Positions 1,662-38,221 of a stretch of DNA of 50,095 nucleotides are shown in pieces. A program made the position numbers and the translations under genes. The stretch comes from a virus (Duplodnaviria; Caudoviricetes), in the IMG/VR virus record IMGVR_UViG_3300033149_001537, positions 1 through 50,095 of that record; one strand, written 5' to 3'. Numbering within the stretch: the stretch's first letter is position 1; each line of letters begins with the position of its first letter. The notes under the pieces are model-generated. The model had not been told where the DNA came from. It was given only the letters and a program-made list of their open reading frames with translations, and did not search any database.

Positions 1662-1805
1662 TTGAGTGACGAAAAGCCGACTTACATAGAAATATCATTA
1701 AATAATCCTGAAAAGGATAATTTTGTAGAATGGGTAAAACAGAATTATACCATACTAAAAATAGAAGAAAAGAATGGCGTGGTAAGGATTGAAGTGAAAA
1801 CATAA
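1662..1805 (+). CDS. small hypothetical protein (47 aa, not in ORF track)
   Basis: TTG start after GGAG, open to a TAA that overlaps the terL ATG (TAATG). Confidence 0.45.
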   Translation: MSDEKPTYIEISLNNPEKDNFVEWVKQNYTILKIEEKNGVVRIEVKT

Positions 1806-3748
1806 TGTACGTCCTCGATGAACACAAATTTCCCTTCTGGAAGGGCTACCGGGAAAACTTCAGGGTAAGGGAGTTTCAATTACCCTCTGATTGGATAAAT
1901 GAGCACTTTCGGCTTTCTACTGCTTATGCTGTGCAGGGAGCTATTAAGCTTTTTCCTTGGCAAGTATCTGTATGTGATGCTATTGTGTATTTTGATGTGG
2001 TTGTTTGTGTTGGGGCTGTCCAGACAGGAAAGTCAATGTGTGCTGAGGCGGTTGTGGGGTATGAGATAGATACCGACACAAATAACATGATGTTGATTTA
2101 TTCTAAGAAGGAAACGGTTGAAGATGTTTTTGACGAGCGATTAAAGCCATTAGTAAAAGAAGTCCCTGCAATCAGGAAACACTGGAACGGTGAAGAAAAT
2201 AATTTAACCAAGAAAAAGTTGAAATTAAATCATCTTATAGCCAGGATAGCTTCTGCCGGACTGAAGACAGATATTGCTACTCATAATGCTGGTTTCGTGT
2301 ATGGATCAGAATTGGCAAAATGGCCTAAAAAGGGATTTTCACAAACAAAAGCTGTTGAAGGTAGAAAACAGGCAAGTCGGATGGTGGGGAAAACAGTAAA
2401 AACTTTGTATGAGACTTCCCCCGAACATGACCAAGACCCATCTTATATAGAAGCACATAAACCGGGAACTATATTTTTTAAACCTCATTATCAATGCCCT
2501 CACTGTGACCATTGGCAGCCACTTGTGGATTCTCAGATAAAAGAAGTGCCCAACAAAAAAGGGGTGAAGGATCACAATAGCGAAAGAATACGGGAAGACA
2601 ACGCTGCATATTACGAGTGTATTAACTGCAAGGGAAAAATAACCGAGGAAGAACGACTACAAATATCTGATAATGTACAATGGATGGATATTAAGAAGAA
2701 AATCCCATTTGATAAAATTGTTAAAATGGATAAGCACCCCAAAAGGGCTGTTTTAAATTGGAATCGACTGGTTGATACTACTTGGAGCTTTGCTGAATGC
2801 CTTGCCATTTTCTTTGATGCTCTGAATAGCCCGAACGCCGATGATTTAAAAACTTATCGCAATGAAGATATGGCAGAATGGGTAAAACTGAGAGCACAAA
2901 AATACGGTGATAGCTTTATAAGGTCAAAATGTTTAAAATACAAACAATATGGAGCAGATGCTTATGTACCTGATGGTGTTAGGGTTTTGTTGCTTGGCGC
3001 GGATACTCAGGATAATGGTTTTTATTTTGTCGTGCGTGGGTTTGGCGCTTCTCTTGAATCTTGGTTGGTTCGTGCTGATTTTATTCATTGTGATATGAAG
3101 GATTATAAAAATCCGGCCGATGTGCTCGATATGTTCAACGGTGAAGTGTATAGATACCCATATATGAAGCGGGACACTACGGTATTGCCTATTTTGTTTG
3201 GCCTTATAGACAGGGGTGGGCACAGAAGTGTTGATGTGGATTACATAGTGAGCCATTCTACCAATATCGGTGCTTTTATAGGTGCAACATCAAGAAACGC
3301 TGCATTGATAGAGCAAAAGCCTTCAGGACACTATCATGGACACAGCGAGAGATTGAGTAGAATTGTGCATAAGAATATGGAATCTAAAATATGGCATTTG
3401 CCGGGTGACATACAACCTGAATACTGTGAACAAGTATTAAATCACTATGACGAGAAAATAATCGACTCGCGGGGAAATGAAAGAAAAAGATGGCTAACCG
3501 GAAACGAACACGGCAAGCCAGACCATTATCGGGATTGTGAAGATTATATCATGGGAGCCGTTAATCTACTTGATTTACAATCACAAATGTTTGCCGATGA
3601 GCCGGAAATTAAAAATTTAGAAAACAGGGTTATCGAGGCAGATAAAGCCAAACAGGAGAAAGAAGAGCAAATGCAGGGAGTTTCCGATAAAGAGGCAAAT
3701 AATCTGGTATCTAAATTTAAAGATGAAATGGGAAAGCATGGGTGGTAA
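1805..3748 (+). CDS. terL: terminase large subunit, lambda GpA family
   Basis: Walker A GAVQTGKS, CPHC..CINC Zn motif, nuclease motifs GADTQ, IDRGG, PDHYRDCE; 647 aa. Confidence 0.95.
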   Translation: MYVLDEHKFPFWKGYRENFRVREFQLPSDWINEHFRLSTAYAVQGAIKLFPWQVSVCDAIVYFDVVVCVGAVQTGKSMCAEAVVGYEIDTDTNNMMLIYSKKETVEDVFDERLKPLVKEVPAIRKHWNGEENNLTKKKLKLNHLIARIASAGLKTDIATHNAGFVYGSELAKWPKKGFSQTKAVEGRKQASRMVGKTVKTLYETSPEHDQDPSYIEAHKPGTIFFKPHYQCPHCDHWQPLVDSQIKEVPNKKGVKDHNSERIREDNAAYYECINCKGKITEEERLQISDNVQWMDIKKKIPFDKIVKMDKHPKRAVLNWNRLVDTTWSFAECLAIFFDALNSPNADDLKTYRNEDMAEWVKLRAQKYGDSFIRSKCLKYKQYGADAYVPDGVRVLLLGADTQDNGFYFVVRGFGASLESWLVRADFIHCDMKDYKNPADVLDMFNGEVYRYPYMKRDTTVLPILFGLIDRGGHRSVDVDYIVSHSTNIGAFIGATSRNAALIEQKPSGHYHGHSERLSRIVHKNMESKIWHLPGDIQPEYCEQVLNHYDEKIIDSRGNERKRWLTGNEHGKPDHYRDCEDYIMGAVNLLDLQSQMFADEPEIKNLENRVIEADKAKQEKEEQMQGVSDKEANNLVSKFKDEMGKHGW

Positions 3749-3998
3749 AATGGGCAAAACAATAGAAGTTAATGACAATGTTGATATGGCACAAGGAATC
3801 AAAATCATTGAAGAGCCGTATAGTGTTAAATGGGAGGCCGAAGGATGGTATAAAATATATTTTAGAAAAACATTTGTGGGTTCTGGAAGAGACTTACACA
3901 ATAAAAATGTTCCCGCGTCTTTGGAGTTATTAAATGATGCTTACCAAAAAGGATATCATAATTGTTCTGTCGAGTTGTTAAATGCTAAAACAAGTTAA
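3723..3998 (+). CDS. hypothetical protein
   Basis: ORF in a tightly packed run; real start probably 3750. Confidence 0.55.
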   Translation: MKWESMGGKMGKTIEVNDNVDMAQGIKIIEEPYSVKWEAEGWYKIYFRKTFVGSGRDLHNKNVPASLELLNDAYQKGYHNCSVELLNAKTS

Positions 3999-4164
3999 AT
4001 CATTCTTTTACTTCATTAAGCTAAAGTGGTACTTTAGGCTTGTGAAGGCTGAAATTATCATAAAAGTGCTGGATGGCAAAGCTATTCCTGCAAATTATTT
4101 CTGGCAACGGTTAGACTATATCATTAGAAAGAAGGGGAAGGTATATGAAAAAGTTCAAAGATGA
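3982..4164 (+). CDS. hypothetical protein
   Basis: short ORF overlapping its neighbours. Confidence 0.45.
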   Translation: MLKQVKSFFYFIKLKWYFRLVKAEIIIKVLDGKAIPANYFWQRLDYIIRKKGKVYEKVQR

Positions 4165-4381
4165 AGTGTACCGTGAGATGAACAAAATATTAAAAAACCC
4201 GGAAAAGAAACTGATTCGTGCATTCTTTGTGCAAAAGGAGCTATTGAAAAGCCCGCATGACTTACGTGACCAGGGTTATCTGCAAATGGAAACGATTGGT
4301 TGGGACACGATACCTGTATATGCCGTTAGGGGTATGGTAAACAAAGTAGAGGCTGAATACATAGACATTGCTCTGAAATAG
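4145..4381 (+). CDS. hypothetical protein
   Basis: GGGGAAGG RBS, 78 aa. Confidence 0.55.
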   Translation: MKKFKDEVYREMNKILKNPEKKLIRAFFVQKELLKSPHDLRDQGYLQMETIGWDTIPVYAVRGMVNKVEAEYIDIALK

Positions 4382-4389
4382 GGGGAATA

Positions 4390-4704
4390 ATGGCAAAAAG
4401 AGGTAGACCACCGAAAAAGAAAATTACTGAGTTATATTTGCAGTATGACATGGATAGAATAGTAGGTGAAGAATGGAAAACCCGATTTGACGAAATTCTT
4501 AATAAACGATATGTCGATGGGTGGAAATATGTGCCACCCTATTCCAGAATAGGAATAAGCGATAAATACAATAGCCAACTCTCACAGCCGGAAATAGTAT
4601 ATGGTGTGCTGTATGAGAGGCGTGTGGCAATAGAGATTGTTGCCCCAAGGGGAACGCTTATCGAACAGCCAATGAAGAAAAACAAATTTCAATTAGGGGA
4701 ATAA
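4390..4704 (+). CDS. hypothetical protein with N-terminal AT-hook-like KRGRP motif
   Basis: MAKRGRPPKK; GGGGG RBS. Confidence 0.6.
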   Translation: MAKRGRPPKKKITELYLQYDMDRIVGEEWKTRFDEILNKRYVDGWKYVPPYSRIGISDKYNSQLSQPEIVYGVLYERRVAIEIVAPRGTLIEQPMKKNKFQLGE

Positions 4705-4719
4705 AAATATAGAAAAGTG

Positions 4720-4748
4720 TTGACAAAGCACTTTTTTTATATTAGTTT
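4720..4748 (+). promoter_or_regulatory. sigma70-type promoter of the Zn-ribbon/RAMP/array unit
   Basis: TTGACA (4720-4725), 17 bp, TAGTTT (4743-4748). Confidence 0.7.
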
Positions 4749-4772
4749 AGTAATATACCAAAGGGGTGAAGT

Positions 4773-4901
4773 ATGAACATAGAAGTTAGGGAAGTTAAAT
4801 GCAAGAGATGTAATCACCAATGGATACCTCGAAAGAAAGAGGTTCGGGTGTGTCCAAAGTGTAAAAGCCCGTATTGGGATAAGGAAAGAACAAAAAAATA
4901 A
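4773..4901 (+). CDS. 42-aa zinc-ribbon protein (not in ORF track)
   Basis: MNIEVREVKCKRCNHQWIPRKKEVRVCPKCKSPYWDKERTKK; two CxxC motifs; AGGGGTG RBS. Confidence 0.8.
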   Translation: MNIEVREVKCKRCNHQWIPRKKEVRVCPKCKSPYWDKERTKK

Positions 4902-4928
4902 CATTCACTTTAACAAAGCGAGGACAGA

Positions 4929-5507
4929 ATGAAGGTTCAAATCATATTCACAGAAGAGTTGCTTGGAACGGCAAGTTCTAACCCAGAAGTTCACAGAGAG
5001 TTTATTGCTTCAAAGGCTCCTGATGCACAAAGCCGGGAAGAAGAGGTTGAGTCTTTGGGTGTTGAAGAGGTGACGGAAAAGGCAATGACGGTGTTTCCCA
5101 GAGAAGACGGAAAGCCATTTTTGTGGGATTATCAAATTAAGGGGTTTTTCAAAGATGCCTGTGGTATGCTTAGACGTGTCAAAGGCACAAAAAGCGCTTC
5201 TCTGAAGGCATTTAAAAAGATTATTGACGGGTTGGTTTTTGTTAATCCCCGCAAAATATTCATTAATATTAATGGGGAAATTGGAGAGTGCCAGCGACCA
5301 TTGAGAGCACAAACTGCTCAGGGGGAACGGATTGCCTTGGCTCACAGCGAAACCATTTCTGAAGGCTCTACTATTGAAATAGAAATAAATTGTCTTAATG
5401 GTGCGTTGGAAAAGGTAGTTGAAGAGTGGCTGGATTATGGCAAGCTCAGAGGATTGGGACAGTGGAGAAATTCAGGTAAGGGAAGATTTGATTATAAGGT
5501 TTGCTAG
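4929..5507 (+). CDS. stand-alone Cas7-group RAMP-like protein (candidate RNA-guided effector backbone)
   Basis: N-terminal beta-strand plus LLG, central P-x-L-x-x-x-QIKGFFKDA helix, HSETI..G segment, C-terminal Gly-rich loop GLGQWRNSGKGRF typical of RAMPs; no other cas genes nearby. Confidence 0.75.
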   Translation: MKVQIIFTEELLGTASSNPEVHREFIASKAPDAQSREEEVESLGVEEVTEKAMTVFPREDGKPFLWDYQIKGFFKDACGMLRRVKGTKSASLKAFKKIIDGLVFVNPRKIFININGEIGECQRPLRAQTAQGERIALAHSETISEGSTIEIEINCLNGALEKVVEEWLDYGKLRGLGQWRNSGKGRFDYKVC

Positions 5508-5846
5508 GGCTATGTGCAGCATTGGTGGTTTGGCACTGCGGTGGCGGAGCAAGGCCCCGTTCAGCAAAGCTGGGGTGTAGCTCAGGGTAGCTCAGTAACG
5601 CAAAGGCATTGAGCAGCAGCGCTATGCTTGAGAGAGCGAGGCAAAGGCGATGCAATGTTGAGCAAGGCCGAGGCTTTGTCCGGCAGCGGCTAAGCATCAC
5701 ACCGCAAAGGCATGACCTAGCATTGCAAAGGCCTTGTTTTGCTTTGCTAAGCCCAGCAATGGCTAAGTAGAGCGACACGCAGCACAGAACAGTTTGCAGA
5801 GGCGCGACACTGCAAGGCAAAGCAATGTGTTGCAAATGAGCAGCAA
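5508..5846 (+). ncRNA. non-coding pentamer-periodic array (NGC/NGT + NN units), candidate guide RNA(s)
   Basis: parses as GGCAT TGAGC AGCAG CGCTA TGCTT GAGAG AGCGA GGCAAA GGCGA TGCAA TGTTG AGCAA...; starts at the RAMP stop codon and ends at a terminator; visibly GC-richer than its flanks. Confidence 0.7.
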
Positions 5847-5847
5847 T

Positions 5848-5881
5848 AAAAGAGCGTTTCTTCGGAAAGGCTCTTTTTTTT
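5848..5881 (+). terminator. rho-independent terminator
   Basis: AAAAGAGCGTTTC-TTCG-GAAAGGCTCTTTT stem with one mismatch, then T-run. Confidence 0.85.
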
Positions 5882-5894
5882 ATTTAAAAACAAG

Positions 5895-5923
5895 TTGACT
5901 TAAAATAAAAAAAAGAGTATAAT
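5895..5923 (+). promoter_or_regulatory. sigma70-type promoter upstream of the head genes
   Basis: TTGACT, 17 bp, TATAAT. Confidence 0.8.
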
Positions 5924-5988
5924 ACCTAGTAATGGTACAATACTCAACATCTTACGACCCATATATTATATACTACTTGAAGTAGTTT

Positions 5989-6011
5989 AGGCGTTTAATA
6001 CGCCTTTTTTT
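5989..6011 (+). terminator. terminator-like hairpin in the head-operon leader
   Basis: AGGCGT-TTAAT-ACGCCT followed by T-run. Confidence 0.55.
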
Positions 6012-6084
6012 ATATGTGAGGACAATTTAAGGCTATACAGGGAGCCTGTACTTTCTGTTATAGCCTTTTTTATTTGGAGGCAAC

Positions 6085-6297
6085 TTGGCATACACAGTAG
6101 CAGATGTAACCGCAATTCGAGCAGCTATTGTTGACATTGCTACTCGCGGCGCGGTCGAAGTTGAAATCAACGGAAGGCGTGTTAAGTATTCAGACCCTTC
6201 AAAGTTACAGTCATTACTTGAAATAATTGAAGCTGAAGTAAATGCTGAAACTTACGGCGGTTGTATGCCTGTTATATTTAAGGAGACAACGGATTAA
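6085..6297 (+). CDS. head-tail joining protein, lambda gpW-like
   Basis: 70 aa, VEINGRRVKY motif, directly before the portal; GGAGG RBS. Confidence 0.8.
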   Translation: MAYTVADVTAIRAAIVDIATRGAVEVEINGRRVKYSDPSKLQSLLEIIEAEVNAETYGGCMPVIFKETTD

Positions 6298-7796
6298 TGG
6301 CATTTCCTATTTTAGACAATTTTCTTAGGCACAGGCGCGAGAAGTATGAAATCCGCATGAATATGTATAATCAGGTGCGTAGAATGCTTTCTCATTATGA
6401 TGCGGGCGAAATGGGCAGGCTTCAGGACGATTGGGCAACTACTACAAATACACCTTCTCAGAACTTCAAGGCAAATTGGCGTACCATTATAGCGCGTTCA
6501 ATACATTCCTATGACAACAATCCTCATACCCAGGCCCTTCTGGGGACACTTCTTTCTAATGTAATAGGCAATGGCATACGTCCGGTGGCAATGGTTAAAA
6601 ACAACGGCGGTGAGCCTGTAGAGGGGATTAATAAGGTTCTCAACGAAGCATGGAAACGATATAACGATGAGTGGGATTCAAGGCGCAAAGACACTCACGC
6701 CGAATTACAGAAGGTACGGTTTGGTGAGATTTTTCGCACAGGTTCTACAATAACAAATTTAAGACCATCGGAAAAGGGTAGCTTTCTTTCAATAACCAAT
6801 CAGGTAATAAATGTACTCAGGCTGGATGATTCGAGAGACTTGTTAAGTGAATCATTTGATGACCCGCAAACGAAAAACACTGTTTTTGGTATAAACATAA
6901 ATGAAAACGAAAGAGCCACTTCTTATTGGATAAAGGGGCTTGACCGTCCCGTATCTGCTGAATTAATGAAATTAGACTTCAAAACTATTCTGGCAGAGCA
7001 ATATATAGGAATGCCTTGGTTAATGGCTGCACTGAAATATTTGTGGGCAAATGAACAACTAATAAGTGACAAACTCATTTCTTCGCGTATTCAGGCAATG
7101 ATAGCACTTTTTATTCCCAACAGCCTAATGAGCAAACTAATGGGACAACAGAAAAACTCTGACAATCAGCTTGAGTGGAAACAAGGGCATGTTTATACTG
7201 GCAAGGTTGGTGAGGAGCCGAAAGTAATTCAGCCTGACGATTCTATAAAAGACGTTTTAGAGCCATTACAGAGGCTTTTATTACATGCCATTTCTACGAC
7301 ATTGGGATTAAGTTATCAGACGGTTACGCGGGATTTGGTGCGTACCAATATGGCATCCGGCAGGATTAATGTTAATGAGGATCGTAAAGTCTTCCGGGCG
7401 TTTCAGAAATGGTTCTCTAAAGATGTTTTACAGCCCGATTGGAACGTGTTTGTCCGGTATATGTTTCTTGAAGGTAAAATCGCCGGCAAGAGCATTATTG
7501 ACTATAACCAGGATAAGTGGAAATATAATCAGGCACATTGGATACCTACAGGATTTGATTTTATAGACCCTTCAAAAGAGGCTACTGCTGCAATTGAGTT
7601 AATCAATAACAAGCAAATGACCTATGAAAAGTGGTATGGAGAGCAAGGCACTGATTACCGGGATGCATTTGCACAAATAGCCAAAGAGCAGAAATTAATG
7701 AAAGAACTAAAAATAGAGCCTGTCGAAGTACAAAACGCAATGCAAAAACAGAAAGCGGGTGTGTCGGGTGATAGCGATAGAGAAGAAGACGATTAA
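6297..7796 (+). CDS. portal protein, lambda family
   Basis: 499 aa; VIGNGI, GLSYQTVTRDL, NMASGR, FIDPSKE motifs. Confidence 0.92.
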   Translation: MAFPILDNFLRHRREKYEIRMNMYNQVRRMLSHYDAGEMGRLQDDWATTTNTPSQNFKANWRTIIARSIHSYDNNPHTQALLGTLLSNVIGNGIRPVAMVKNNGGEPVEGINKVLNEAWKRYNDEWDSRRKDTHAELQKVRFGEIFRTGSTITNLRPSEKGSFLSITNQVINVLRLDDSRDLLSESFDDPQTKNTVFGININENERATSYWIKGLDRPVSAELMKLDFKTILAEQYIGMPWLMAALKYLWANEQLISDKLISSRIQAMIALFIPNSLMSKLMGQQKNSDNQLEWKQGHVYTGKVGEEPKVIQPDDSIKDVLEPLQRLLLHAISTTLGLSYQTVTRDLVRTNMASGRINVNEDRKVFRAFQKWFSKDVLQPDWNVFVRYMFLEGKIAGKSIIDYNQDKWKYNQAHWIPTGFDFIDPSKEATAAIELINNKQMTYEKWYGEQGTDYRDAFAQIAKEQKLMKELKIEPVEVQNAMQKQKAGVSGDSDREEDD

Positions 7797-38094: not shown

Positions 38095-38221
38095 ACACAA
38101 CACAGAAAGGTTGCCATTGCGGGGGCTATCGGATGTCACGCTTGGTAGGCGGTCAAGGACATGCAGCGATATCGAGTGCCGGTAGTCGCCCACAACAGCA
38201 ACCATTTCTGGAACGTTGTGA
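38095..38221 (+). repeat. attC-like hairpin
   Basis: ACACAAC-A-CAGAAA-GGTTGC...GCAACC-A-TTTCTG-GAAC-GTTGTGA with an extrahelical base. Confidence 0.7.

Follow-up and report, generated by a model that had tools for sequence, protein, structure and literature searches.

Closest described systems

VIPR systems were first described in 2026 as a solo phage RAMP protein of ~20 kDa, Vipr, accompanied by pentamer-repeat RNAs termed vrRNAs (bioRxiv 10.64898/2026.04.26.720920). According to that paper, whose starting set comprised 2,664 NR proteins, the NN pairs of a vrRNA read dsDNA, skipping every third base. Its text reports the characterisation of type II VIPR in Escherichia phage SUSP1 and in a Pseudomonas fulva prophage, and names alternative repeats (YNNNG, NNNGG and NNNNG), 'staggered' arrays and seven types. 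In a staggered array, as the legend of fig. S18 has it, one vrRNA ends where the next one starts, with a 1-nt overlap (bioRxiv 10.64898/2026.04.26.720920).

The vrRNAs of SUSP1 are described as separate ~100-nt units, each carrying 9–16 GGY/NN repeats and a conserved ~40-nt pseudoknot tail, and vap1 lies 3′ of vipr; the SUSP1 locus examined here has this canonical form. In the SUSP1 structure paper, each RNA repeat is said to take up one protomer, the thumb of which flips bases; W178 stacks on G2, R179 holds Y3, and H17 together with D177 reads G1.

A genomic-language-model survey reported 99 period-5 clusters, each next to a Vipr-like fold, 21 of which carry motifs other than GGY/NN, e.g., WGT/NN and TGH/NN (bioRxiv 10.64898/2026.10.21.760802). 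A degenerate first base is thus already in print. The clusters of that survey have ~10 repeats, and block punctuation of the kind reported below is not known from them.

Here, we report a locus in a 50,095-nt stretch of gut-phage DNA (IMG/VR record IMGVR_UViG_3300033149_001537, Caudoviricetes; hereafter, the window), in which the gene for a 192-aa protein is followed by an array of five-base units (Table 1). Very probably, this is a phage VIPR system, with the array supplying its vrRNA guides and the gene encoding its Vipr, a minimal Cas7-like RAMP.

Table 1. Features of the locus, in window coordinates
Feature	Coordinates	Strand	Basis
vipr-like gene, 192-aa stand-alone Cas7-type RAMP	4929..5507	+	ORF, AlphaFold2, Foldseek, profile comparisons
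vrRNA-like array, ~65 five-base units (G, C/T, three free) in 11 blocks	5508..5846	+	autocorrelation, parse, HMM
block 0, 35 nt, irregular, one 4-nt unit	5508..5542	+	parse
block 1, 31 nt, 6 units	5543..5573	+	parse
block 2, 31 nt, 6 units	5574..5604	+	parse
block 3, 41 nt, 8 units, one degenerate	5605..5645	+	parse
block 4, 26 nt, 5 units	5646..5671	+	parse
block 5, 16 nt, 3 units	5672..5687	+	parse
block 6, 21 nt, 4 units	5688..5708	+	parse
block 7, 21 nt, 4 units	5709..5729	+	parse
block 8, 31 nt, 6 units	5730..5760	+	parse
block 9, 40 nt, one 4-nt unit	5761..5800	+	parse
block 10, 36 nt, 7 units; two further units to 5846	5801..5836	+	parse
intrinsic terminator: 12-pair interrupted stem, UUCG loop, U run	5848..5881	+	read from sequence

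The period-5 array of the window

A sequence-only reading of the window had proposed that this region consists of pentamers, each a conserved triplet plus a variable dinucleotide, cut into blocks by hexamers. The period itself was confirmed by autocorrelation, which at lag 5 reaches 0.383 versus 0.258 in 1000 dinucleotide-preserving shuffles (z = 5.0). Lag 10 is likewise raised (z = 3.5), and at longer lags the peaks shift to 5n+1, i.e., lag 16 (z = 3.8), 21 (z = 5.2), 26 (z = 4.2), 31 (z = 4.7) and 36 (z = 3.4), showing that the strong period-5 signal is accompanied by +1 phase jumps. The coding period is absent from the same region (lag 3, z = −1.3). A phase-tracking parse recovered every block start of the sequence-only reading (the first coordinates of blocks 0 to 10 in Table 1), and block lengths, which that reading had called mostly 5n+1, have this form in 9 of the 11 blocks, the 35- and 40-nt blocks each containing one 4-nt unit.

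The proposed triplet stood only in part. In the parse, 93% of units have G at position 2, and position 3 is C (77%) or T (16%); only this dinucleotide is conserved, since the first base varies almost freely (A.41, T.28, G.20, C.11). The repeat unit is therefore G-Y followed by three free bases, with a constant part of two bases, and the 'hexamer' is more aptly seen as the product of one additional G, by which the first unit of each block becomes GGC or GGT.

The array region is GC-rich, with a GC content of 0.575 across 5500–5699 versus 0.33–0.45 in the flanks, and is covered by an HMM segment at 5503–5846. Further HMM segments at 216–284, at 38113–38168 and in a Ser-rich coding stretch were rejected as false positives of a permissive model; the letters of the 216–284 segment show no period-5 grammar. 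Tandem Repeats Finder misses the array and lists no tandem array anywhere in the 50-kb window. An Rfam search of 4500–6500 at E ≤ 1 returned no real match, only two chance eukaryotic ones, and the whole window gave zero matches at the gathering score and no CRISPR repeat family.

The array is bounded on one side by the stop codon of the 192-aa ORF and on the other by the intrinsic terminator, which forms the final hairpin of the minimum-free-energy fold and was not listed by a consensus terminator scan. This terminator is predicted to close a joint transcript of vipr and array.

Related loci and the grammar of the family

Relatives are encoded by 257 of 260 candidate IMG/VR stretches, of which 80 were kept, representing 78 distinct loci. 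All 78 have a period-5 array, 60 nt or longer, beside the gene, in one of two layouts: directly 3′ of the stop codon, or ~40 nt upstream of the start codon. The lag-5 z-score exceeds 3 in 63 of 63 distinct arrays (median 7.1), and the lag-3 z-score does so in none of them.

Family-wide, the unit has G at 97%, followed by C (66%), A (25%) or T (8%), and the remaining three positions hold at most 0.22 bits each. Fixed and free positions likewise separate in 32 clusters of homologous blocks, in which the variable columns number 4 at the G, 22 at the next base, and 62, 51 and 68 at the three that follow. The 688 distinct junctions of the 63 arrays have the consensus G97 C92 A70 A79 N / G100 G100 C62/A33, and 631 of the 1005 spacings between successive phase jumps are 5n+1. 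Blocks, of which the clade has roughly 540 distinct ones, comprise 3–8 units in the window and typically 4–8 in the family. Whole blocks are gained and lost between related arrays, and homologous blocks persist as recognisable families across phages.

This gut-phage clade is very large in metagenomes: the scored set exceeded 8000 clusters at 90% identity and numbered 1737 representatives at 50% identity; the same search with the SUSP1 protein gave 529 matches. In GenBank phages, no DNA similarity to 4929–6100 was found. A protein search returned four uncultured phages without annotation, which come from human faecal samples and are 55–60% identical.

A Cas7-type RAMP protein

The 192-aa protein matched no Pfam family and no PHROG family. 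Its AlphaFold2 model (pLDDT 91.1, pTM 0.85) has 87 Foldseek matches in the PDB at E ≤ 0.001, the top ranks of which are all class 1 CRISPR backbone subunits. The best of them are type VII and type III-A effector backbone chains, with probability 1.0 and a TM score of ~0.55 (range 0.43–0.58); the type VII chain was named 'Cas7' by its depositors, and we take the ~200-residue Csm chains among the matches to be Csm3. At the glycine-rich loop, a profile of the family matches Cas7 (E 2e-5) as well as Csm4. The model places a thumb-like hairpin at 119–143, in which R123 and R126 are invariant and R134 nearly so, and W179 and R180 of the G-loop are invariant among 49 aligned sequences. Judging from the modelled fold and these profile matches, we are confident in assigning the protein to the Cas7-type RAMPs. 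A prediction of a three-copy complex of the protein scored 0.39, the mark being 0.42, and is given no weight in either direction.

Our first idea, a TRAP-like or CsrB-like protein sponge, was dropped on account of the RAMP fold and the VIPR papers. TRAP is an 11-mer ring of small beta-sandwich subunits that binds spaced triplets; a TRAP-like ring protein is excluded because the fold, by AlphaFold2 and Foldseek, is that of a RAMP.

With hhalign, the alignments to SUSP1 Vipr and to the family of that protein extend over the full length, although with a probability of only 68.5% and 69.0% (E 4.6e-5 and 4.4e-5, respectively). When the 108 ORFs of SUSP1 were searched with the HMM of our family, SUSP1 Vipr ranked first, but with E 0.007 and over the G-loop only. 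These comparisons hint at a remote kinship, as would be expected for a different VIPR type. In the hhalign alignment, W179 and R180 of the window protein fall on W178 and R179 of SUSP1, whereas the SUSP1 readers of the first G are not kept, H17 being aligned with a gap or T14 and D177 with Q178. The loss of the H17 and D177 contacts fits an array in which the first base is free.

Comparison with known systems and proposed mechanism

Several of the features by which a VIPR system is recognised are present at this locus, namely a small stand-alone RAMP with an RRM core, a thumb and a glycine-rich loop, a pentamer array of at least 4 units, the G2 and Y3 contacts (by alignment), and a phage-borne, non-CRISPR setting. 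Discrete vrRNAs of 9–16 repeats with a 3′ tail or pseudoknot, the hallmarks of type II, were not found here; the short blocks without a tail indicate that the locus is not type II. The SUSP1 system (KT454805.2; Vipr, PDB 36pp) and the window share a RAMP core, a thumb and the G-loop G-x-G-x-W-R...G-R-F in proteins of 195 and 192 aa, respectively, and both have a phage-encoded period-5 RNA with an invariant G and no CRISPR array. In contrast to the separate SUSP1 units, the window has a single 339-nt array of 11 short blocks, in which there is no tail and the position of the first G is free, and no vap gene was found beside it.

The form of VIPR found here is probably that described as YNNNG repeats in a staggered array. 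As in that form, so far as the VIPR paper's text describes it, a solo phage RAMP lies next to a pentamer array of G plus a pyrimidine-like base and three free bases (YNNNG when read cyclically), no tails separate the guides, and neighbouring guides abut. The 1-nt overlap between guides of a staggered array would also give the 5n+1 spacing of the window. There are two differences: the second fixed base of the family (C, A or T, as given above) is not strictly a pyrimidine, and the GCAAN/GG junction motif is not known from the published form.

The class 1 CRISPR Cas7 backbones (type VII Cas7, type III-A Csm and Cas7-11) are the best structural matches of the window protein, and their G-loop is detectable in its family by sequence profile; the published pairing of each repeat with a single protomer is a further point in common. 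CRISPR guides, however, are read in 6-nt steps with 5 paired bases, whereas the window array advances in 5-nt steps. Nor does the locus belong to class 1 CRISPR-Cas: it has no CRISPR repeat family or array, no cas gene besides the RAMP and no adaptation module were detected near it, and the travelling unit is the gene with its pentamer array only.

The mechanism that we propose is carried over, by homology, from SUSP1. A single transcript ending at the terminator would hold both gene and array, and Vipr protomers would bind this RNA and polymerise on it into a filament, one per five-base unit. Each protomer would clamp the invariant G and the pyrimidine-like base after it and expose free bases, which would pair with one strand of dsDNA such that every third target base is skipped. 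A block would thereby read a footprint of 9–24 bp, and binding would silence transcription at that site, which would typically lie within a coding sequence of a competing phage or another mobile element. The blocks start with GG and end with GCAAN; each is most likely a guide by itself, separated by cleavage at the junctions or else serving as a register of a 'staggered' array.

This class of mechanism was published in 2026, so no new field is opened here, and the window system is a genuine example of it rather than a new kind. It adds a well-documented 'G-Y plus three free bases', non-type-II VIPR, together with the grammar of its whole family as drawn from 63 arrays (30 kb). The lost first-G contacts, together with the free first base, make a testable link from structure to code, and guides that are short and tail-less have practical appeal for the design of minimal programmable DNA binders.

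Guide reading and candidate targets

Targets were sought in a local set of 79 sequences (0.52 Mb) and in 43 whole related phage genomes (1.95 Mb) under seven pairing rules, including skips of 0, 1, 2 and 3, contiguous triplets and shifted pairs, with reversed, swapped or shuffled guides as decoys. Real guides did no better than decoys under any rule in either the 0.52 Mb or the 1.95 Mb of related phage DNA, one shuffled decoy likewise reached a perfect 8-unit match, and the codon-frame distribution of guide matches does not differ from that of the decoys. The target enrichment that the sequence-only reading had put forward as a check was therefore not seen in this small database.

The blocks of the window itself gave no target beyond chance, either in IMG/VR pattern scans of blocks 3 and 10 or in related phages. 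The read bases of block 3 occur 30 times in IMG/VR, which is about chance level, and its pattern, with up to 2 mismatches, occurs in none of 52 related phage records; for block 10, the IMG/VR matches listed show no clustering. A conserved 9-unit block of the relatives has one match in IMG/VR, which lies in a tape-measure-like gene in an unexpected frame and is thus ascribed to chance. The best matches of block 3 lie in frame within a small tyrosine recombinase gene.

A single good candidate for a natural target was found in a relative, L058, one 8-unit block of which matches another phage of the set at 16 of 16 read bases and at 6 of 8 skipped bases. The match ends at the block boundaries and lies in frame on the peptide KTKMKDWK of a replication-initiation gene (PHROG 1408/2149), and the phage that carries the guide is itself without the motif. 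Among the 80 matches listed for this pattern in IMG/VR, ~26 likewise hit this conserved motif in frame. Because the guide runs in the mRNA sense, it would pair with the template DNA strand rather than with the transcript.

The sequence-only reading had taken each block for a separate guide or processing unit whose NN pairs spell a gapped target. The gain and loss of whole blocks and the L058 match, which spans exactly one block, favour the former claim, and the latter is the published VIPR mechanism, of which the locus shows the fold and the architecture; for neither did the searches yield targets in excess of decoys. Moreover, blocks of 3–4 units would read only 6–8 bases, which is too few for specificity.

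Alternative explanations

The clade may instead use a code of its own, in which two bases are clamped and all three free bases presented, blocks of 4–8 units read contiguous triplets (12–24 bases), and GCAAN/GG is a minimal processing or register signal in place of the 40-nt tail; we regard this variant as possible but doubtful. Several observations hint at it, namely the loss of the residues by which SUSP1 Vipr buries the first G, the matching of 6 of the 8 'skipped' bases in the L058 candidate target, and a depletion of stop triplets in the free bases that is confined to the sense frame (88 observed vs 151 ± 9 expected, z = −6.8). This depletion is real but heterogeneous with context, TAA being enriched after A or T and depleted after C. 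Against contiguous triplets, another long guide matches at only 1 of 9 third bases, the best synonymous frame varies among the 13 block clusters, out of 32, that were compared, and the target searches gave no enrichment over decoys under this rule. The idea that the free triplets are codons gained nothing from a codon-usage likelihood model, which is confounded by stop pseudo-counts and did not rise above out-of-frame models.

Other explanations keep the protein–RNA complex and change its purpose. The same Vipr–RNA filament could be aimed at RNA, i.e., at rival or host transcripts, rather than at dsDNA, given that the solved structures nearest to the model are type III and type VII backbones, which target RNA, that the clade has neither the tail nor the first-G contacts seen in type II, a DNA-binding system, and that the guide of SUSP1 VIPR, according to the structure paper, is able to pair with an RNA strand. 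However, dsDNA is reported as the functional target of the characterised systems, RNA having given mostly incomplete filaments, and the mRNA-sense guide of L058 points to DNA as well, so an RNA target seems unlikely. A scaffold or decoy with no guide role, whose array would do no more than nucleate a Cas7-like filament, for example, one that sequesters a host factor or acts as an anti-defence sponge while its free bases drift neutrally, would account for the lack of target enrichment over decoys and for the many blocks too short for specificity. The free bases are not random, however, since families of homologous blocks are kept across phages, and the L058 block reproduces, base for base, a conserved motif in the replication gene of a rival. 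As published relatives are programmable guides (bioRxiv 10.64898/2026.04.26.720920), we consider such a scaffold quite unlikely.

Explanations that dispense with the RNA fare worse. The window copy lies inside the packaging module, from TerL to the gpW-like and portal genes, as would suit a DNA-level element between terminase and portal (for packaging, recombination or protein binding) whose period reflects binding to dsDNA. This is very improbable, because the array is near packaging-gene homologues in 0 of the 78 related loci and always with the RAMP gene, its grammar is strand-specific (G, then C/A/T, on the strand of the gene), and the stop codon of the gene and the terminator bracket it. 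A period of 5 bp is half a helical turn, and we know of no packaging site that has it. It is scarcely credible that the array is an artefact of base composition or that a coding region has been overlooked here, even though an open minus-strand frame of 129 codons (5446–5835) spans it: period 5 rises above shuffles in every distinct array, the coding period is missing here and throughout the 63 arrays, and between relatives the arrays differ by entire 5n+1 blocks, a change that would throw any reading frame out of register.

Genomic context

In the window, the locus is embedded in the phage packaging module, where its neighbours are a 42-aa zinc ribbon, small ORFs, TerL, a gpW-like adaptor and the portal. 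Homologues of these neighbours occur within 3 kb of the vipr-like gene in 0 of the 78 loci, from which we conclude that gene plus array form the mobile unit. The zinc ribbon and the other neighbours were considered as accessory genes and rejected because they are not conserved with vipr, and no conserved accessory (vap) gene, a common though not constant companion of vipr, was found among the window neighbours across the 78 loci. The lone recurrent real neighbour in the relatives is a 123-aa HTH protein, which is found in 42 of the 78 loci at variable positions.

Array grammar in the window and among related loci

The sequence-only reading had parsed the window array (see table) as pentamers of a conserved triplet and a variable dinucleotide, cut into blocks by hexamers. 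Autocorrelation of 5508–5846, scored against 1000 dinucleotide-preserving shuffles, bore out the period, with z = 5.0 at lag 5, z = 3.5 at lag 10 and lag 3 below the shuffle expectation. The later peaks shift to lags 16, 21, 26, 31 and 36 (z 3.4–5.2), which is the signature of pentamer runs interrupted by one extra base. A phase-tracking parse recovered all eleven proposed block starts, and the 5n+1 length holds for nine of the eleven blocks. The triplet stood in part: a G (93%) is followed by C (77%) or T (16%), but the preceding base is nearly free. The cut into blocks likewise stood, the supposed hexamers resolving into an extra G that gives the GGC or GGT block start. The array is a real feature, with 57% G+C in a 50,095-bp phage record of roughly 40%.

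Features of the locus in the window
Feature	Position	Strand	Remarks
Large terminase	1805–3748		PHROG 15, E 1e-47
192-aa ORF	4929–5507	+	Last of the small-ORF insert between terminase and adaptor
Pentamer array	5508–5846	+	Directly after the 192-aa ORF
Closing hairpin	5848–5881	+	UUCG loop, run of eight T
gpW-like head-tail adaptor	ORF 6085–6297		
Portal	ORF 6297–7796		PHROG 21, E 4e-61

A scan of IMG/VR gave 257 relatives, from which 80 loci were kept, 78 of them distinct, and all 78 carry a period-5 segment, 60 nt or longer, adjoining the gene. In 30 loci the array lies only downstream and begins at the stop codon; in 29 it lies only upstream and stops about 40 nt short of the start codon; the other 19 have segments on both sides, the upstream ones being short and putative. 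Putative upstream segments of 94–185 nt, some 85–195 nt before the vipr start in loci with a downstream array (L028, L029, L035, L038, L040, L043, L051–L058 and L061–L063), are reminiscent of the single upstream vrRNA of Escherichia phage SUSP1.

The 63 distinct arrays (170–1492 nt each, 30.3 kb together) all exceed z = 3 at lag 5 (median 7.1), and none shows a period-3 signal. Across them the unit has a G at 97%, followed by C (66%), A (25%) or T (8%), and the other three positions carry at most 0.22 bits. Most one-base insertions (920 of 1068) double the G. The distance from one insertion to the next is 5n+1 in 631 of 1005 cases, peaking at 26 (156), 31 (201), 36 (84) and 41 (68); at 688 distinct junctions the consensus reads G C A A N before the boundary and G G C/A after it. 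Among homologous blocks, grouped in 32 clusters, variable columns number 4 at the G, 22 at the next base and then 62, 51 and 68, so that the free positions are hypervariable and the fixed ones are not. The expectation of variable NN pairs beside a fixed triplet across homologous loci, as opposed to equal conservation of both, thus agrees with the family.

Related arrays keep their common blocks in one order, whole blocks having been gained or lost between one array and another. Within one array following a vipr homologue (L074), whole blocks and also three-unit sub-blocks are duplicated in tandem, as strings that recur in its translation show; this points to array growth through local duplications whose free bases then diverge. 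An antisense open frame of 129 codons also runs through the window array (5446–5835, minus strand). It lacks a period-3 signal, and the block indels of the relatives rule out its conservation; most likely the G/C-rich grammar produces it as a by-product.

The 192-aa protein and membership in VIPR

The 192-aa protein belongs to no Pfam or PHROG family. Its own family is very large: over 8000 clusters at 90% identity were scored, none with a name beyond 'hypothetical', and there are 1737 representatives at 50% identity (E ≤ 0.001). An AlphaFold2 model from a 49-member alignment (pLDDT 91.1, pTM 0.85) gave 87 Foldseek matches in the PDB at E ≤ 0.001, the top ranks of which are all backbone chains (about 200 residues) from CRISPR effector complexes of types VII and III-A or Cas7 domains of Cas7-11, with probability 1.0 and TM 0.43–0.58. 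By sequence, the family profile matches type VII Cas7 (E 2e-5) and Csm4 over the C-terminal glycine-rich loop. Taken together, the structural and profile matches identify the protein as a stand-alone Cas7-type RAMP.

In the published description of VIPR, Vipr is a phage-encoded minimal RAMP of about 20 kDa that binds vrRNAs, each made of 9–16 GGY/NN pentamers and a 3' tail. Every third base of the double-stranded DNA is skipped as the NN pairs read it, and such binding shuts off genes of rival phages and satellites (bioRxiv 10.64898/2026.04.26.720920). That account distinguishes seven types, gives NNNGG, YNNNG and NNNNG as alternative repeats, and describes 'staggered arrays' in which the end of one vrRNA is the start of the next, with a 1-nt overlap. 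A satellite recombinase is reported as a wobble-aligned VIPR target (10.64898/2026.10.15.759431). A further report recovered 99 period-5 clusters, of which 21 have non-canonical motifs, TGH/NN for example (10.64898/2026.10.21.760802). The reported structure of the SUSP1 complex has one protomer per repeat, with H17 and D177 reading G1, G2 lying between R138 and W178, and Y3 in a pocket with R179 (10.64898/2026.04.26.720927).

The SUSP1 record (KT454805.2), confirmed by its title, is a canonical VIPR locus, and the residue numbering of its 195-aa ORF, which is PDB 36pp, agrees with the structure paper. By hhalign, the family aligns end to end, weakly, with SUSP1 Vipr as a single sequence (probability 68.5%, E 4.6e-5) and scores similarly against a 36-sequence SUSP1-family profile (69.0%, E 4.4e-5); a plain family HMM run on the 108 SUSP1 ORFs matched the G-loop only (E 0.007). 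The invariant W179 and R180 of the family align with SUSP1 W178 and R179. The readers of the first G are without counterpart, H17 falling at a gap beside T14 and D177 opposite Q178, and this apparent loss of contacts would agree with an array that fixes the second G and the base after it and leaves the first G free.

The window locus has the fold, architecture, array grammar and phage context of VIPR in general, whereas the 9–16 repeats, conserved tail and vap1 of the SUSP1-like type II are not found in it. The published YNNNG repeat, read cyclically, is the G-Y plus three free bases of the window, and a 1-nt overlap of 5n+2 units, as the description of staggered arrays has it, would give the 5n+1 spacing seen here. 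We therefore file the locus as a VIPR member, probably of the staggered-array kind as the text of that paper describes it. The earlier proposal of a guide array spelling a gapped target is in essence the published VIPR mechanism, and the locus documents a short-block, tail-less form of it and the size of its gut-phage clade.

Free bases and candidate targets

Triplets of free bases are poor in stop codons when read in the RNA-sense frame, with 88 observed against 151 ± 9 expected from shuffling within each position (z = −6.8; the 63 arrays of the related loci and the window array), compared with z of −1.3 to −3.5 in the other frames. Such depletion would be expected from a third free base that also follows the wobble base of the target. 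The depletion varies with context, a codon-usage model fits the free-base triplets no better, and the frame of synonymous-looking differences varies among block families. We consider it unlikely that the third free base is also read, a bolder reading based on the stop depletion.

All distinct clade blocks were run against 0.52 Mb from related loci and then, with arrays masked, against 1.95 Mb made up of 43 complete related phage genomes, the window among them; the rules were 0, 1, 2 or 3 skipped bases, contiguous triplets or a shifted pair. Under every rule and in both sets, real guides did no better than reversed, swapped or shuffled ones, and their matches were distributed over codon frames like those of decoys; the predicted target enrichment over permuted controls did not appear in this related phage DNA. 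Individual matches were found. An 8-unit block of one related locus (L058) has an in-frame match to KTKMKDWK, close to the C-terminal end of a replication-initiation protein (PHROG 1408/2149) of another VIPR-bearing phage; all 16 read bases and 6 of the 8 skipped ones agree. This match stops at the block boundaries, a second genome matches at 15 of 16 read bases, and the motif is absent from the phage carrying the guide. Over IMG/VR the same pattern hits at least 120 stretches; of the 80 listed, about 26 are in frame on the same conserved motif. Two more long guides match in frame with one mismatch each, in a sigma/HTH-like gene and on a GKRFKVNDK motif (families named from peptides). One shuffled decoy also made a perfect 8-unit match, and these three guide matches are therefore candidates, not proof.

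The window's own blocks gave no target match above chance. Block 3 (5605–5645) has 30 matches in IMG/VR against about 20 estimated by chance at an assumed collection size; the best, in three contigs, spell IARYLREK in a 182-aa tyrosine recombinase (Pfam Phage_integrase, E 7e-24), and five of eight third bases agree too. The matches of block 10 (5801–5836), among those listed, are unclustered.

Mobility and neighbouring elements

The vipr-array module (3723–5881), with several small ORFs, is an insert between the large terminase and the gpW-like and portal genes. None of the window's neighbour genes, a 42-aa zinc-ribbon ORF (4773–4901) among them, has a homologue within 3 kb of vipr in any of the 78 related loci; the moving unit is thus the gene and array, with the zinc-ribbon ORF outside it, and the module behaves as a mobile cassette (moron). 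A 123-aa HTH protein, XRE-like by its N-terminal sequence, lies within 3 kb of the vipr homologue in 42 of the 78 loci, on either strand and at variable distance, and could be a vap-like partner or merely a common phage repressor.

Directly 3' of the array terminator, the window (5895–6075) contains a near-consensus sigma-70 promoter (TTGACT, 17-nt spacer, TATAAT; 11/12). Between it and the gpW-like gene lie two short units (about 5930–6010 and 6020–6075), each closing in a terminator-like hairpin with a T run. The elements of this interval have no credible Rfam match, and the two units are possibly small phage RNAs or leader elements.
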